NCBI GenBank assembly: GCA_049964795.1
Contig: JBMFWY010000003.1
Coordinates: forward strand, 1 to 57,947
Origin: Candidatus Micrarchaeia archaeon
GTDB lineage: Archaea; Micrarchaeota; Micrarchaeia; Micrarchaeales; Micrarchaeaceae
DNA length: 57,947 nucleotides
Direction: 5' to 3'
Of the stretch, positions 992-57,087 are shown in pieces. Numbering within the stretch: the first letter of the stretch is position 1; each line of letters begins with the position of its first letter. Position numbers and translations under genes: made by a program. The notes beneath the pieces were generated by a model. It saw nothing but the letters and a program-made list of their open reading frames with translations, was not told the DNA's origin and ran no database searches.

Positions 992-1106
992 CGGGCCTGG
1001 CGGGATTTTCAACGCTTCTTTTTTCGCTTCAATCAAAGAAGCTTATTTGAACCCGCAGCCACCTGGTCCGAAGCCAGGCGCGCTGTCCAAGTTGCGCCAC
1101 AGGCCC
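992..1106 (-). tRNA. tRNA-Arg(TCG) with a 40-nt intron at 59/60 (intron 1006-1045)
   Basis: Acceptor stem GGGCCTG/CAGGCCC; anticodon arm CCTGG-CT-TCG-GA-CCAGG; the T arm is interrupted by a bulge-helix-bulge (TTCA/TGAA helix, two AAT bulges). Confidence 0.93.
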
Positions 1107-35123: not shown

Positions 35124-36149
35124 TTGGCAAAACATAAGGCAAGAAGCCAGAAAAGACAAAAGAAAAATGAAGGCGGCAAATCCATAAACACGCTGCCGCT
35201 TTACATAATCATATTGCTGCTTTTCATATTCTACATAATGTTTCAAAGATATGTGGTTGTTTCGGCTTTTGCAGGAATTGCGCTTTTCCTTGTAATTATT
35301 ACTACTATAGCGGTAGAGATGGGCGCCAGCTTCAAGGAAGAGGGAGTGAAAAAGAGCGTGCTGGAGCTCTCTATAGCTGTTGTAATAGTAATAGTATTCT
35401 GGTTCGGCCTAAAGATTGTGCTAGGCACGCAGTATCCCTTGAACGTAGTGCCTACATGCAGCATGCTGCCCGTATTGCATCGCGGAGATCTTGTAGTAAT
35501 ATCTGGAGTTACAAGTGCCGCGGAGCTGAAAGCGCCAATAGTGAACATAAGCAGCGCGGAATGGAATACTACAATGAGCAATTTCGGCACTGAATTCCTT
35601 GAGTGCGCTGCATACAATGCAAGCAATGAAACAGTTTCCTCAGTATTCAAAAAAGGGGACGAATTGGTGCTCTTTCCCACTTCAGGCTACAATCGTATAA
35701 TAGACTTGAACCAGCAAGGCAACAATCTTATAAAATACGGCTGCGGAGTGAGAGAAGTTAAGGCGAGCGATGGAACCAGCTTTCTTGAAGCTTATACCGA
35801 TTATATAAAGGTCGGCAATACGACAATAGAAGGAGATAGGAATAATTCAATAGTTGTTTACAAAACGGTGCCGCAAGACTATTTTTACAGGATGGGAGAC
35901 ACATATATAGTGCACAGAATATACGCGATAATAAACGCGAGCGGTACTTACTACGTGCTTACAAAAGGCGATAATAATCCGGGTCTCGATATACAGTTTG
36001 GCAATTACCCCATATTGCTGCAGAGGTCAAACAACTATGTCGAAGGCAAGGTCATCTTTGTAGCACCTTACATAGGATATTTGAGGCTTATATTTAGCAG
36101 GCAGCTCAGCGAACCCCAGGGGTGCAACACTACGATAACGCACGGCTGA
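35124..36149 (+). CDS. archaeal/ER-type signal peptidase I (S26) with a large insertion
   Basis: 3 TM helices, VVPTCSMLPVLHRGDL (Ser box), IVHRI (His), TKGDNN and GKV..PYIG. Confidence 0.8.
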   Translation: MAKHKARSQKRQKKNEGGKSINTLPLYIIILLLFIFYIMFQRYVVVSAFAGIALFLVIITTIAVEMGASFKEEGVKKSVLELSIAVVIVIVFWFGLKIVLGTQYPLNVVPTCSMLPVLHRGDLVVISGVTSAAELKAPIVNISSAEWNTTMSNFGTEFLECAAYNASNETVSSVFKKGDELVLFPTSGYNRIIDLNQQGNNLIKYGCGVREVKASDGTSFLEAYTDYIKVGNTTIEGDRNNSIVVYKTVPQDYFYRMGDTYIVHRIYAIINASGTYYVLTKGDNNPGLDIQFGNYPILLQRSNNYVEGKVIFVAPYIGYLRLIFSRQLSEPQGCNTTITHG

Positions 36150-36234
36150 AACACAACATGCAGCAATACAAAAAGATGCGCAGTGCGGCAGGAAGATGTG
36201 GGGTTTTCTTCACTGCTCCACACTGGCACAAACA

Positions 36235-36375
36235 TTAGTGTATTTTTAGTATAGACAACACCCTCGAAATGAGGGTTTTCCTTTGGGTTGGAAGAGAATA
36301 AGCGTACTTTGGCGCGAGGTCCCATATTCGGCCTTGGACTTTTTCACGCACTTCGAAATCTTGAATCGTTTCCAT
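36235..36375 (-). CDS. putative 46-aa small protein (not in ORF track)
   Basis: METIQDFEVREKVQGRIWDLAPKYAYSLPTQRKTLISRVLSILKIH*; ATG 18 nt after the upstream stop; amphipathic C-terminal helix. Confidence 0.5.
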   Translation of the reverse strand: METIQDFEVREKVQGRIWDLAPKYAYSLPTQRKTLISRVLSILKIH

Positions 36376-36393
36376 GTATCTCGCCACTTTTAT

Positions 36394-36681
36394 TCACTTT
36401 CTCTTTAGACAATAATAGCTCATCGCATAGCCGTACTTGCTGTGCATGCTTTCTGCTATTTTGTTTCCAAGCTCTGAATCGTTACTGCTTGTTTTCGCCT
36501 TTACGAGGAAGCCGTAATCTCCTTCGGTTATGTAGACTTCCTCTATTCCTGCTACACTGAGCAGCTTTGAAGAAAGTTCATCGGCATTAAGGTTCGGAAT
36601 CGGCTTCAAAAAGAAGAACTTATGCATACTACTTACCTTCTTTGCGCCACCGACTTTCGCATATTCTTTTTTATTGACCAC
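36394..36681 (-). CDS. stand-alone Lrp/AsnC ligand-binding (RAM-like) domain protein
   Basis: LLSVAGIEEVYITEGDYGFLVKA pattern; no HTH; GTG start after GGTG. Confidence 0.75.
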   Translation of the reverse strand: MVNKKEYAKVGGAKKVSSMHKFFFLKPIPNLNADELSSKLLSVAGIEEVYITEGDYGFLVKAKTSSNDSELGNKIAESMHSKYGYAMSYYCLKRK

Positions 36682-36721
36682 GGCAACACCGGTATTTTTG
36701 TTTTTTTTGTTTGCTTACCCG

Positions 36722-36898
36722 TTACCCCCTTTCATAGGGAAAAAGGACGAGTAATATCTTTACGTTCCATACTGGATGAGAACGGGGATTGGGCTGTTTT
36801 TTGTTTCCGGGCCGATATGCAGAAATCTTATCTTTACTGGGCGCATAGCTCTCGGGCTGCCAGGATTCGTGCTCCTTGTTAGTGTTATAACTTGGCAC
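36722..36898 (-). CDS. putative 58-aa small protein (not in ORF track)
   Basis: GGGGTGA SD followed by GTG: MPSYNTNKEHESWQPESYAPSKDKISAYRPGNKKQPNPRSHPVWNVKILLVLFPYERG*. Confidence 0.4.
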   Translation of the reverse strand: MPSYNTNKEHESWQPESYAPSKDKISAYRPGNKKQPNPRSHPVWNVKILLVLFPYERG

Positions 36899-36929
36899 AG
36901 CTTCACCCCAAACCTGTTAGATATTTTGT

Positions 36930-37086
36930 GAGTTTGATTATAAATAGATAATTAAGTTATAGAGAACTAAGCCTAGTCTTATCGAGAGATATAACCAGAT
37001 TATTTCTAATAATTGTCATTAATTTAACCTTATAAATTAATAGTATAAAGATAAATTTAAATACATTAATAACCTTATTTAATACT
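36930..37086. promoter_or_regulatory. very AT-rich divergent promoter region
   Basis: Several TATA-like boxes (TTATAAAT twice, TTTAAATA) between divergent genes. Confidence 0.55.
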
Positions 37087-38418
37087 ATGGAAGTGCCACA
37101 GACAGTAATGGAGGCATTCTCTGGGTTAAAGGCAGGGTATCCTTACTATATTTCTCTAGCGAGGATCAACGGCAAGTTCTATGTATATAGGTCGCAATCT
37201 TTTTGGGACAGTGCACAAAAGCGCGTGCGCACAAAAAAGACATATCTTGGCAGAATAGAAGAAGATGGCACATTCATCGAAAAGAAGGTAATACAAGCAC
37301 CTATACAAATAGTACATGGGTCGAGCCAGATTGATGAGATAGACAAAACAATACTTACGCATTTGAGTATGAACTGCAGGATTCCACTCTCTGTAATAGC
37401 AAAAAGGACAGGGCTTAGCGTAAGGGCAGTAGAAAACAGGAAGAAAAAACTTGAGAAGAGATTCGGTATAAGGTATCTTGCGAGTATAGTTCACGTTAAG
37501 TTGAATTTTTCACCTTATTTGTTACTCATAAAGTTCCTTAAAGAAAAGCCGCCGATAGATGACATAAGGCAAGTATTTGAAAAAGAGCCGCATGTGCAGC
37601 TGGTCATGACAACACAGGGCGAATATGATCTGCTAGTATTTATGCTAGCAGAAAGCACATTAGAACTTGAAAATGCCATTTACATATTAAGAGGTAATGA
37701 AAAAATCTCAAAATACGAAGCGGAATGGAACGCTACAGCTTTTCAGGATAATTATAGTTATATTACGTGGAGAGATAATTTCTTTCAACTGCTAGAAAAA
37801 AAGGTATGGCATCGCAGCAAAGTTGCACCGAGGCCCCCAAGCGATAGCATTACTCGAAGAGAGTATATATTACTTAGAGAGTTGAACAGAGATGGTGCCC
37901 AACCTTTTTCTGAAATAGATAAAAGGTATAATTTTGGAAACGGTGCTGCAAAGTATACGTTTGAAAAATTAAGGAAGAAGGGTATTATTTTCAGAGAGAC
38001 CCTTACGATGCACATACCTGATATAAAATACAATGCAGCGATAATTGTTGAGATAATAAACGAATCAAAGTTCATTTATAGCCGTGAAAGTCTTCTAAAA
38101 TATATGATCAAAGATACAGATGGACCTACAAACACTTTCGCGTATGTTGCTGAAATAACCGCGCCTAACGGTTTCTTGTTTATATTGCCAGTAATTAACG
38201 AAGGAAAACTAGAAGAGGAGATAGAAAATATATCAAAGCAGATAAAAGGTATTACTATCAAATCGATGATAATTACCCAGACGGTCTTAGGAGAACTATG
38301 CTATAGGAGAATAGATAATAATCAGTCAAGTCAGATGGAGATATTAGTTTCAAGATATAAAATACCACCACCAAAAGAAAGAGTAGACTATGAAACAGAA
38401 AAAATAGAAAGTAAATAA
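37087..38418 (+). CDS. tandem Lrp/AsnC-type regulator (two HTH + ligand-domain units) with a transposase-like N-terminal domain
   Basis: HTH1 IDEIDKTILTHLSMNCRIPLSVIAKRTGLS; ligand domain with TQGEYDLL; HTH2 REYILLRELNRDGAQPFSEID; N-terminal INGKFYVYRSQSFWD...YLGRI. Confidence 0.8.
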   Translation: MEVPQTVMEAFSGLKAGYPYYISLARINGKFYVYRSQSFWDSAQKRVRTKKTYLGRIEEDGTFIEKKVIQAPIQIVHGSSQIDEIDKTILTHLSMNCRIPLSVIAKRTGLSVRAVENRKKKLEKRFGIRYLASIVHVKLNFSPYLLLIKFLKEKPPIDDIRQVFEKEPHVQLVMTTQGEYDLLVFMLAESTLELENAIYILRGNEKISKYEAEWNATAFQDNYSYITWRDNFFQLLEKKVWHRSKVAPRPPSDSITRREYILLRELNRDGAQPFSEIDKRYNFGNGAAKYTFEKLRKKGIIFRETLTMHIPDIKYNAAIIVEIINESKFIYSRESLLKYMIKDTDGPTNTFAYVAEITAPNGFLFILPVINEGKLEEEIENISKQIKGITIKSMIITQTVLGELCYRRIDNNQSSQMEILVSRYKIPPPKERVDYETEKIESK

Positions 38419-38443
38419 TATAGAGAAAAATAACTTTAAAGAT

Positions 38444-38542
38444 TTAAAGTGGAACTGGCCTCTTCCAGATAATTCTTCCGCCAGATCCATCTCCGGTTCC
38501 TCCGCCTCCTGAATCCTGCCCCCGCTTTATCAAATCTTCCAT
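38444..38542 (-). CDS. 32-aa Gly-rich peptide
   Basis: MEDLIKRGQDSGGGGTGDGSGGRIIWKRPVPL*; AAGGTG SD 5 nt before the ATG and TTATTTAAAA upstream. Confidence 0.65.
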   Translation of the reverse strand: MEDLIKRGQDSGGGGTGDGSGGRIIWKRPVPL

Positions 38543-38705
38543 GTTTACACCTTTTGTAATAATTACTACGATACTCTCTTTACTGGAAGGTTTTAAATAA
38601 GTTTTGGAGAGCTTTGGAACTATAAATGCTTTTGCGGGATAAACTAACAATCATTGAATATTTAAAAACGGAAAGTCTACAGAAGAGGTAGATAATTCTA
38701 CGAAG

Positions 38706-38948
38706 ATGAGCCAATTAGGCAAAATAGCGACTGGGTATTTTGCTGCTGTGGCTGCGGTAGACATAGGAGCTGGAATATATCTGCTGCTATCTCATGGCGA
38801 GTACAATGGTATGGAAGGTATTTTGGTGGGCAGCTTTTCGGCTGCGGCAGGCGTAACAATAGGGATGGGGAACAGAACAAGCCACGGTCTACGTGCTGCA
38901 AAAGAGCAAATTCTTCTAAGGACAAAAGTTACTGTTGAACCTGCTTGA
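38706..38948 (+). CDS. small two-TM Gly/Ala-rich membrane protein
   Basis: GAGGT SD, two hydrophobic segments and a T-rich terminator downstream. Confidence 0.65.
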   Translation: MSQLGKIATGYFAAVAAVDIGAGIYLLLSHGEYNGMEGILVGSFSAAAGVTIGMGNRTSHGLRAAKEQILLRTKVTVEPA

Positions 38949-39229
38949 TCTAACGGCTTTTATTGCTTTCTTTTTCTTCGCTTTCTTTGTTCTGTTCTGA
39001 TTTCACGCGCTGCGGATCGGCACTAAATAGGATAGCTGGGCTTGCTTCCGGAAATCTTTCTTCTGCTCTGCAATTCGCAACACATTTATATGTTTTCCTC
39101 TTACAATTCTCACAGTAACAGGATAGTTTTTATATATCTTTATTTTCAATTCTATCACTGCTCTGCGATTTGTATCCTTCATTTGCAGGAATTGAATTGC
39201 GGCGCGTGTTTGCTTTGATTGTGATCTAA

Positions 39230-39694
39230 ATGACAGACCTATCTGGAGATATACGCTTGGCAGTAGACAGCGGCAAGGTAGCGATAGGAGCGAACAGTGT
39301 CATCGCTTCCATAACTACAGGCACGGCAAAATTAGTCGTCCTCTCACCTAAGGGCAAGCAGGATCCTTACAATGATATTTTACACCTTGCAAAGTTGTCA
39401 GAACTTAGGATTATAAAATTTGAAGGGAACCCTATAGAACTTGGGGCAGTATGCGGAAAACCCTTTCCGGTATCTGCGATAGCTATAATAAATCCAGGCA
39501 ACTCAAATATACTCAACGAAGATTATTCAAAACAGACAAATACTGCGGAAGAGGAGAAGAGAGCTGCAAGGAAAGAAAAGAAGGAAAAGAGGAGGAAGGC
39601 AAAGGAAGAAGCTATTGAGAAGGAAGAGGAAGAAGCACGTGTAGACAATGATGATGCACAAGAAGAAGGCGAAGGAGCCCAAGAAGGTGCTTAA
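39230..39694 (+). CDS. rpl30e: 50S ribosomal protein L30e with a charged C-terminal tail
   Basis: AVDSGKVAIG and ELGAVCGKPF...IINPGNS motifs. Confidence 0.93.
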   Translation: MTDLSGDIRLAVDSGKVAIGANSVIASITTGTAKLVVLSPKGKQDPYNDILHLAKLSELRIIKFEGNPIELGAVCGKPFPVSAIAIINPGNSNILNEDYSKQTNTAEEEKRAARKEKKEKRRKAKEEAIEKEEEEARVDNDDAQEEGEGAQEGA

Positions 39695-56947: not shown

Positions 56948-57087
56948 GGGGTTGTTGCGTAATCTGGCAGCGCGGCAGGCTCCAGATGTTTGTATATCAG
57001 ATTGAGCGCTTATGCGCGATGATTAAGATCTGGAAATATGAAGACATGAGTTACCTGCAAATCTGGGTTCAAATCCCAGCAACCCCA
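56948..57087 (+). tRNA. tRNA-Trp(CCA) with a 67-nt intron at 37/38 (intron 56986-57052)
   Basis: GGGGTTG/CAACCCC acceptor; GCAGG-CT-CCA-G[intron]A-CCTGC; relaxed BHB motif. Confidence 0.93.

Follow-up and report, generated by a model that had tools for sequence, protein, structure and literature searches.

Very short peptide genes that adjoin the gene of a cytoplasmic transcription factor are a feature of bacterial RRNPP and Rgg-SHP signalling, in which TPR-type receptors are paired with hydrophobic or leader-bearing peptides that are exported and then re-imported. Tiny open reading frames (ORFs) also make up the his and leu leader peptides, the classical attenuators. To our knowledge, no leader-peptide attenuation has been described in Archaea, and our literature search found none. 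Here we analyze a locus of a Candidatus Micrarchaeia archaeon in which the gene of an Lrp-type regulator of 443 residues is accompanied by a divergent gene for a stand-alone RAM (Lrp ligand) domain and by a convergent Gly-rich micro-gene of 32 codons. The DNA analyzed, referred to as the window, comprises 57,947 nucleotides (assembly GCA_049964795.1, contig JBMFWY010000003.1, positions 1 to 57,947 of the forward strand), and the locus occupies positions 36,235 to 38,948.

Lrp regulators and RAM-only proteins are both already known. Regulators of the Lrp/AsnC (FFRP) family carry one module of about 150 residues, a helix-turn-helix (HTH) plus a RAM domain, and assemble as dimers and octamers. 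The factor in the window shares the AsnC-type winged HTH and the RAM fold and is likewise accompanied by a RAM-only protein, but it has two modules and a 67-residue N-terminal domain in a single chain. Passages of PMC2995911 describe a hetero-octamer that the regulator FL11 forms in vitro with the RAM-only protein DM1, and RAM-only proteins are thought there to join such assemblies. The RAM protein of the window resembles DM1 in consisting of the RAM fold alone, with no HTH. Unlike in the FL11/DM1 pair, however, its gene is a fixed divergent neighbor of the regulator (54 of 95 cases) and a convergent Gly-rich micro-gene is attached. Two Lrp-like modules fused in one unit are also known from the siroheme decarboxylases NirDL and AhbA-AhbB, to which the regulator is linked by a match to structure 4ch7, but the identity is only 12–13%, the first HTH is a good DNA-binding one of the AsnC type, and no heme genes are found among the recurrent neighbors. 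For this last reason, the cassette is not a NirDL/AhbAB system.

The arrangement of a very short peptide gene beside the gene of a cytoplasmic transcription factor is shared with RRNPP, Rgg-SHP and RopB systems, and parts of PMC10518010 deal with leaderless peptides of 8–9 residues that are active as translated and act on adjacent regulators of Firmicutes. In contrast to these systems, the fold of the putative receptor is Lrp and not TPR, the peptides are oligoglycine-like instead of hydrophobic, most have no leader, no transporter is linked, the micro-gene is always convergent at the 3' end of the regulator gene, and the organisms are Archaea. Lacking a TPR receptor, hydrophobic peptides and signs of peptide export, the cassette does not belong to the RRNPP, Rgg or LCP type. 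A hexapeptide ORF that acts purely in cis, the MAGDIS upstream ORF (uORF) of AdoMetDC, is treated in a section of PMC2811004. Like such micro-uORFs and leader-peptide attenuators, the micro-gene is a tiny ORF with its own start signals in which one amino acid and one codon dominate and the sequence is otherwise weakly conserved. It differs from them in position: the only candidate target nearby is the regulator gene, which has the micro-gene behind its 3' end and on the opposite strand, with nothing ahead of the micro-gene except the antisense strand of the regulator. Since the micro-gene is not upstream of a target, the cassette is not a leader-peptide attenuator. Full-text literature searches found no prior description of the cassette, in line with the original prediction, made from the sequence alone, which knew of no characterized equivalent. 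The Lrp regulator of the 'ARMAN' paper (passages of PMC5498576) belongs to a copper island and is unrelated. In the literature searched, we found no counterpart of the single-chain double-Lrp protein with its N-terminal domain, of its fixed pairing with a RAM-only protein, or, above all, of the conserved oligoglycine micro-gene at its 3' end, and these features appear to be new.

The original prediction had placed a regulator and several small genes in an AT-rich block between a signal peptidase gene and the L30e operon, and each of its ORFs is present there at the predicted coordinates (Table 1). The cassette spans about 2.3 kb, and the ORFs lie between the signal-peptidase-like gene and the L30e-S12-S7-EF2 genes. 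The AT-richness was confirmed as well: at 36800–38600 the GC content is 0.362, the 0.36th percentile of 2249 segments of 1.8 kb from the whole genome (assembly of 724,721 bp, mean 0.437, standard deviation 0.024), and it falls to 0.34–0.37 across the block, compared with 0.42–0.46 in both flanks. GC at third codon positions (GC3) is 0.354 in the regulator gene, 0.479 in the RAM gene and 0.48–0.49 in the neighboring SMC, signal peptidase and EF-2 genes. As described below, the block belongs to a regulatory cassette that is specific to one archaeal order and present there in multiple copies, of which this is one.

Table 1. Features of the locus (positions in the window; TM, transmembrane; SD, Shine-Dalgarno sequence)
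Feature	Position	Strand	Remarks
Small protein gene, 50 aa from GTG or 46 aa from ATG at 36375	36235-36387	-	Last gene of the RAM operon
Stand-alone RAM protein, 95 aa (core of 77 aa from 36627)	36394-36681	-	Divergent from regulator
58-aa ORF	36722-36898	-	Unlikely to be a gene; probable leader or promoter DNA of RAM operon
AT-rich divergent promoter region	36899-37086		GC 0.35; TATA-like boxes in both directions
Block present here and missing at the syntenic site of G002	~36960-39030		Regulator, micro-gene and 2-TM ORF; boundaries approximate
Double-Lrp regulator, single chain, 443 aa	37087-38418	+	Pfam, PDB profile and model
Gly-rich micro-gene, 32 aa (MEDLIKRGQDSGGGGTGDGSGGRIIWKRPVPL)	38444-38542	-	Convergent; stop 25 nt from regulator stop
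SD of micro-gene, GGTG	38548-38551	-	Five bases from ATG; consensus match
TATA-like box of micro-gene, TTATTTAAAA	38592-38601	-	Consensus match; signal region 38543-38610
2-TM ORF, 80 aa	38706-38948	+	In variable block; outside conserved cassette

Oligoglycine micro-genes behind the regulators

Relatives of the regulator were detected in 37 of 41 related genomes, mostly in several copies (up to 13 matches of all kinds and up to 11 of the long class per genome). The 260 nucleotides behind each regulator were searched on the convergent strand with a strict filter (ATG start, 6–40 residues, at least four Gly and at least 28% Gly), and an ORF that passed was found behind 35 of 95 regulators, 1–218 nucleotides past the regulator stop. 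Among the discovery loci, 16 of 50 regulators had such an ORF, and 20 of the 34 ORFs passing the filter in 948 kb of strand-bases lay in the 13.4 kb of this zone, an enrichment of about 100-fold. The result was replicated in 40 loci from genomes outside the discovery set, with an ORF behind 19 of 45 regulators and 23 of 28 ORFs in 11.9 of 405 kb (about 150-fold). In the organism's own genome as a whole, six ORFs pass the Gly filter; only two have both an SD and a TATA box, and both of these lie behind the two long regulators. The original prediction had made its case depend on peptide and ligand-domain genes recurring beside homologous regulators, and both do.

The layout is the same across loci: a TATA-like box is followed by GGTG or GTGA, an ATG and a very short Gly-rich ORF that is always convergent with the regulator. 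For the 43 micro-ORFs collected, the median length is 9 residues (most peptides have 6–13), the stop is TAA in 31, and the median gap between the stops of micro-ORF and regulator is 37 nucleotides (range 1–218). Among the 37 micro-ORFs with an SD, 29 have a GGTG/GTGA word whose first base is 8–9 nucleotides ahead of the ATG. SDs are in general use in the genome of the window, where one precedes 23% of 436 long ORFs versus 4% of random positions. Examples of the peptides are MGGSGGD, MGGTGGGA, MNGGPNGGG, MRGPGGGDA and MFGPEKPENDNNGGGGGGG. Their overall composition is 54% Gly, 7% Asp, 7% Ser and 4% Pro with almost no hydrophobic or aromatic residues, and the non-Gly residues are poorly conserved across the family. 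In genome G024, one promoter is followed by seven tandem octapeptide ORFs, most with a GGTG-type SD ahead of them. The strict filter skips clear relatives with fewer Gly residues as well as copies lost at contig ends (for example in G001); with a looser filter for TATA and SD, a small ORF was found in the zone of 32 of 50 regulators, about 25 of them family-like by eye.

The 32-codon ORF of the window, which is nested in a frame of 68 codons, has its own SD and TATA box as originally predicted. Contig C13 of G002, a genome of the same genus, contains two near-identical tandem copies of this peptide gene (33 and 36 residues) and a degenerate third. They directly adjoin the 3' end of a regulator gene, whose C-terminus is encoded by the first 102 bases of the contig. 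Over the last 17 codons, comparison of the window with the two G002 copies reveals seven synonymous codon positions (including a TCT/AGT switch for Ser) and three at which the amino acid changed. Similarly, three of four codon differences are synonymous between the copy on the organism's own contig C11 and its G002 orthologue (MRGPGGGDA and MKGPGGGDA), with the promoter kept and the similarity stopping at the stop codon. These substitution patterns indicate that purifying selection acts on the micro-ORF. Upstream of the G002:C13 peptide genes, on the same strand, is an ORF of at least 303 codons (L079 926-1837, minus strand) with an HExxH-like HELYH motif and C-terminal hydrophobic segments, for which Pfam gave no match. 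In the window itself, a very hydrophobic 46-codon ORF (38350-38490, minus strand) that begins within the micro-gene, but in a different frame, extends antisense across the Lys/Glu/Pro-rich C-terminus of the regulator, with GGAGG-like words directly upstream; it is probably a mirror-image artefact of the regulator coding sequence.

One explanation of the locus would be that chance ORFs lie in an AT-rich, horizontally acquired island around an ordinary Lrp regulator, the small ORFs being annotation noise. The deviant GC and GC3, the missing block at the syntenic site of G002, the position of many family members near contig ends and the 58-codon ORF of the window, which is indeed spurious (see below), would all agree with it. 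However, it does not account for an enrichment of about 100- to 150-fold in two separate sets of loci, for the two-of-two result genome-wide, for conservation across genera and in both main clades of the regulator tree, or for the codon-level evidence of coding. Moreover, the neighbors are housekeeping genes and not mobile elements, and low GC is a trait of the family, 70 of 88 regulators being poorer in GC than their flanks (mean difference −0.043). We regard the chance reading as refuted by the enrichment, the genome-wide result and the codon-level evidence as far as the micro-ORF and the RAM gene are concerned, and for the locus as a whole we give it hardly any credence. We are highly confident that the cassette is real and that its micro-ORF is translated.

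Selection does not appear to stop at the peptide. GGA accounts for 65% of the Gly codons of the micro-ORFs (n = 222), whereas its share is 28% for the regulators, 24% for the remaining long ORFs at these loci and 26% for translation genes, which prefer GGC. This bias therefore argues that there is also selection at the level of the nucleotides or of tRNA. It might be that the selected feature is the RNA or DNA itself, a (GGA)n purine tract on one strand and (UCC)n in the 3' untranslated region (UTR) of the regulator, whose role could be that of an SD-like tract that binds ribosomes or serves as a decoy, of an unusual structure or of an mRNA 3'-end element, with translation into oligoglycine being secondary. 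Since translation genes favor GGC, the bias does not come from an expression-linked codon preference; in addition, GGAGG-like words recur inside the micro-ORFs, and the tract always lies inside the predicted 3' UTR of the regulator. Against an element of this kind, the ATG at SD distance, the GGN frame and the stop just after the tract are retained in nearly all cases. Conservation also stops at the stop codon, codons are swapped synonymously (Ser TCT/AGT and others) while the non-Gly parts are kept at the amino-acid level, and no Rfam family matches at the locus. We thus consider a purely nucleic acid element improbable. In an Rfam scan of 36100–39300, only chance-level rows appeared at E≤5, the gathering score being reached in the window by tRNAs alone, and a repeat search of 36650–38760 returned just the short matches typical of AT-rich DNA.

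The double-Lrp regulator and its RAM-only partner

The original prediction of a tandem-Lrp regulator is well supported. Pfam recognizes an AsnC-type HTH (PF13404) at residues 82–123 (E 4.2e-12; 46.1 bits, cut-off 27), a ligand domain (PF01037) at residues 154–202 that at 18.8 bits is below the cut-off of 25, and a second, weaker winged helix at residues 255–304 that is also sub-threshold. With a profile of 22 family members, residues 84–215 align to whole Lrp chains in the PDB, the best matches being FL11/PH1519 (E 1.8e-15), LrpA and others. The AlphaFold model (mean predicted local distance difference test, pLDDT, 89.1; predicted template modelling score, pTM, 0.75) has an N-terminal domain at residues 1–67 (a helix and four strands between residues 5 and 65), a disordered linker at 68–78, and two winged HTH-RAM modules at 84–224 and 257–401, both of them complete (beta-alpha-beta-beta-alpha-beta). 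In a whole-chain Foldseek comparison, NirDL 4ch7 ranked first (E 1.5e-11 over 348 aligned columns), ahead of single Lrp regulators. The model has the Lrp fold throughout, and no TPR match was found by Pfam in the regulator. One of the relatives bears the name Lrp/AsnC family transcriptional regulator, Candidatus Micrarchaeaceae archaeon.

The N-terminal 73 residues matched 155 clusters at E≤1e-3 among 1.84 billion representative proteins, and most of these clusters are proteins of 440–500 residues matched at their N-terminus. Judging from these searches, the N-terminal beta domain is almost private to the double-Lrp family. Three proteins of about 110 residues (P0093, P0103 and P0131) share its beta-hairpin part (..Y.Y.S.S.WDK..K.PR...Y.GR..), followed by a coiled-coil-like tail.

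The 95-residue RAM protein has relatives in 34 of the 41 related genomes. PF01037 is matched at E≤0.1 by 20 of 24 RAM-only members (best 2.5e-7); the protein of the window scores 17.1 bits, under the 25-bit cut-off. With a profile of the RAM-only family, matches were obtained to FL11, in its RAM part (E 3e-4), and to structure 2e1a of DM1, itself RAM-only (E 3e-3), and the model (pLDDT 81) has a beta-alpha-beta-beta-alpha-beta fold with no HTH, for which Lrp RAM domains are the top, albeit weak, Foldseek matches (E 2e-3, TM score about 0.5). Comparison of the RAM-only and regulator family profiles gave a weak match (E 0.021) that aligns to RAM module 1. Family hidden Markov models placed a divergent RAM gene within 1.3 kb upstream of 54 of 95 regulators, the nearer end of the RAM ORF lying a median of 403 nucleotides away from where the regulator starts. 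An earlier comparison of coordinates had located a RAM gene 260–2903 bp upstream of 30 of 63 long regulators, divergent in all 30. From the divergent adjacency and the FL11-DM1 precedent we infer that the RAM protein may form a hetero-assembly with the double-Lrp factor.

In the 86 regulators whose flanking DNA sufficed for scoring both features, both the RAM gene and the micro-ORF are present in 20, the RAM gene alone in 32, the micro-ORF alone in 12 and neither in 22. On a FastTree phylogeny of the regulators, the presence of the two features is scattered (45 changes versus 50.4 in shuffles) with no clade-specific pattern. Both features occur in both main clades, and related regulators carry related peptides.

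The RAM gene is followed by a gene for a small protein of 46 or 50 residues, depending on the start. Relatives at E≤0.1 were found in 5 of the 41 genomes, the G002 relative being 55% identical (E 1.5e-11). Those in G002, in G001, in G004 (two) and in the organism's own paralogous C11 locus are each located directly 3' of a RAM gene, while the match in the fifth genome (G034) lies inside a 531-residue frame and was dismissed as chance. The small protein is thus conserved among members of the genus and at the paralogous locus. In other genera, unrelated small ORFs occupy the position after the RAM gene. Those of 56–72 residues in L065 and L066 (G012), L030, L034 and L060 (G014) and L073 (G032) have a common motif, ..V.K......W.h.WADEY, that is unlike the small protein of the window.

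The original prediction had also included a 58-residue protein in the divergent operon. The RAM domain gene and the small gene behind it stand, but the 58-codon ORF is not conserved as a protein. It has no Pfam match, and in this region the window, G001, G002 and the C11 paralogue have no more in common than some 11 final codons and, near 36940–36950, a TATA-like block (CTATTTATA). The body of the ORF cannot be aligned, although the adjoining RAM proteins are 74–83% identical. With two promoter-like DNA blocks as the only conserved parts, the ORF was rejected as a gene. Most of 19 RAM-bearing loci have a stretch of about 150 AT-rich nucleotides beside the regulator start, and given the family's habit of autoregulation, the regulator is predicted to bind its counterpart in the window, the divergent promoter region.

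Possible roles as a translation-dependent sensor or a peptide product

The reading that we tentatively prefer, while holding it at somewhat less than even confidence, is that the cassette is a cis-acting, translation-dependent sensor combined with a switch formed by the Lrp factor and its RAM partner. The double-Lrp factor would be a built-in Lrp 'dimer' that binds the AT-rich divergent promoter, and with the RAM-only partner it may form effector sites, as Pyrococcus FL11 does with DM1 in vitro. The micro-gene would work mainly in cis via its own translation: a short GGA-rich ORF with additional Asp and Pro codons could report on glycyl-tRNA or translation status, and the convergent overlap would set the extent of antisense transcription, or of an RNA duplex, over the 3' end of the regulator gene. 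The peptide may additionally be a cofactor. A cis role is favored because the micro-gene has a fixed convergent position near the regulator stop, because a bias for one amino acid and one codon is typical of leader peptides, and because the other residues are weakly conserved across the family. Runs of five T residues (T5) suggest, though weakly, that the transcripts of regulator and micro-gene overlap by about 100 nucleotides. ARAGORN found 22 tRNAs in the 91.6%-complete assembly; tRNA-Gly(UCC) is not among them, which is no evidence of its absence.

A more far-reaching version of this proposal is that the oligoglycine micro-genes constitute a new type of archaeal sensor in which a GGA-rich ORF of 6–13 codons gates antisense transcription into the factor gene. 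The trigger would be the supply of glycyl-tRNA or slow formation of Gly/Asp/Pro peptide bonds, and the double-Lrp factor with its RAM-only partner would read amino-acid status at the protein level. In this specific form we regard the idea as doubtful.

The principal competitor is a peptide that acts in trans as a cofactor or signal, binding the double-Lrp factor and/or the RAM-only protein and altering DNA binding. This could take place within the cell, or the peptide could first be released and taken up; a parallel would be the leaderless 8–9-residue peptides that act on RopB-type receptors of Firmicutes. In many loci the peptide gene adjoins the putative receptor gene, an arrangement for which unprocessed peptides of 8–9 residues encoded beside their receptor provide a precedent in the pertinent part of PMC10518010. 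Non-Gly residues are under purifying selection within genera, paralogues of one genome each have their own peptide variant with related regulators carrying related peptides, and the tandem arrays (two to three copies in G002, seven in G024) suggest that the dosage of the product matters. On the other hand, peptides that mostly have 6–13 residues and are 54% Gly are near-featureless and offer little for specific recognition, and the RAM ligands known from the corresponding part of PMC2995911 are single amino acids. No exporter, importer or protease recurs among the housekeeping neighbors, and both the GGA bias and the strict tail-to-tail position would go unexplained. We therefore rate a trans-acting peptide as rather unlikely. 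The original prediction of a peptide-signalling module was correct in expecting a conserved set of regulator, peptide and RAM genes, but peptide sensing or RRNPP/Rgg-like signalling is at most a possibility, the fold being Lrp and not TPR, the peptides Gly-rich and no transporter linked; the convergent geometry and the GGA bias point at least as much to a cis-acting role at the level of translation. A model of the complex of the regulator with two RAM proteins and the 32-residue peptide scored 0.00 against a mark of 0.32; run without controls, it speaks neither for nor against peptide binding.

Several observations weigh against the explanation that we prefer. A peptide product would agree at least equally well with the conserved non-Gly tails (RIIWKRP., MFGPE) and with the tandem arrays. 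Leader-type sensors normally lie upstream of their target, and we know of no convergent case. A strict micro-ORF accompanies no more than 35 of the 95 regulators, and its occurrence is not linked to that of the RAM gene (20 of 52 regulators with RAM, 12 of 34 without). The RAM operon also occurs without a regulator at the syntenic site of G002. A first T5 run within 60 nucleotides of the micro-ORF stop is present in only 13 of 35 loci. A search for an operator common to the micro-gene and divergent promoters found none, the longest shared word averaging 8.46 within loci (n = 39) and 8.44 across loci (n = 228). The promoters, SDs and terminators are no more than matches to a consensus, the Gly filter was chosen when the first cases were already known (it was re-applied unchanged to the second set of loci), and the genomes are metagenome-assembled and mutually related, such that the counts are not independent events.

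Distribution of the cassette and neighboring features

In a sample of 151 genomes of the phylum (which includes G054, flagged as unpublished and used for no further result), regulator matches at E≤1e-30 were obtained in 37 of 45 genomes of family f1 and 17 of 25 of family f3, and in none of the 81 genomes of 18 other families. In this sample, the regulator family is confined to two families of one order. A metagenome scan with the regulator returned one distant locus (L085, 31% identity), which was not used, and a scan of viral contigs with the family alignment gave 18 pattern matches, none of them confirmed. In the genome of the window, another long copy is encoded at C11:8760-10091 (38% identity), and C8 carries a tandem-Lrp relative that is shorter. 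Numerous copies in the family lie within a few hundred bases of contig ends. In G116:C11:33000-60000 (L086-L087), six long-class regulators are found in about 25 kb, four of them with a strict Gly-rich micro-ORF.

The neighbors at 50 loci were clustered, and representatives of the recurrent clusters (with numbers up to 27) plus two G002 ORFs were scanned against Pfam. Recurrent neighbors include a class I aminoacyl-tRNA synthetase (7 loci), ScpA/ScpB, aIF5B, S-adenosylmethionine synthetase, NDK and Hjc; transporter, exporter, importer, protease and heme d1 or alternative-heme genes were not found among them. Because the neighbors are housekeeping genes, a mobile-element origin was rejected.

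At the syntenic site on G002:C26, the order is EF2-S7-S12-L30e, a 102-residue ORF, the RAM gene, a 53-residue ORF, a 311-residue protein, signal peptidase and SMC, with no regulator, micro-gene or 2-TM ORF. The segment missing there largely coincides with the AT-rich block, and the regulator and peptide genes of G002 are on contigs other than C26. Since the block is missing at this site and the RAM operon is retained, the regulator and micro-gene move or are lost as a unit, apart from the RAM operon. The 311-residue protein (L063 5548-6483, plus strand), which the window does not have, combines a pilin-like N-terminus (by eye) with a Laminin_G_3 match (E 8e-20).

The small 2-TM protein of the original prediction does exist as an ORF, but it is no part of the conserved cassette. 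It has no syntenic relative, and its best match (E 3.5e-4), a 104-residue ORF on G003:C10, sits between thermosome and aminopeptidase genes. In view of this weak, non-syntenic relative, and being unlike the ORF beside the G002 peptide genes, it was rejected as a cassette member. Just upstream of the L30e gene, window positions 39031-39229 are 89% identical to G002:C26 and contain a 59-codon minus-strand ORF (39003-39182) and a 58-codon plus-strand ORF; this stretch could be a promoter or leader, a small gene or an RNA. Rfam also called tRNAs at 56948-57087 (plus strand) and 1048-1106 (minus strand) that ARAGORN missed, one of them spanning 140 nucleotides and probably containing an intron. In a shorter tandem-Lrp class of 333–354 residues without the N-terminal domain (L071 in G004:C62, L072 in G028:C2, L073 in G032:C1), a divergent RAM-only gene is present as well. 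At L072 and L073, a convergent ORF of 54–61 residues with a common CPRL motif lies at the 3' end of the tandem-Lrp gene, so these loci look like a sister cassette with a different small partner.

With 1–11 copies per genome in host-dependent archaea whose genomes measure just 0.6–1.2 Mb, the cassette is probably a main regulatory device of the lineage, and it may represent a new link between gene control and the status of nutrients or translation. Should the micro-genes be sensors or cofactors, they would show how organisms unable to make their own amino acids gauge the supply, and the known controls of Lrp-type regulators would be joined by an oligopeptide encoded in a gene or by an antisense switch coupled to translation. 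A sensor of this kind would be the first translational sensor described in Archaea that resembles a leader peptide, and the first of all such sensors to act on its target from the 3' end; recruitment of Lrp/RAM domains for binding an oligoglycine peptide with a gene of its own, the alternative, would be equally novel. It would also follow that genes of 6–10 codons, overlooked by every annotation pipeline, can be partners of regulators and be conserved as such.

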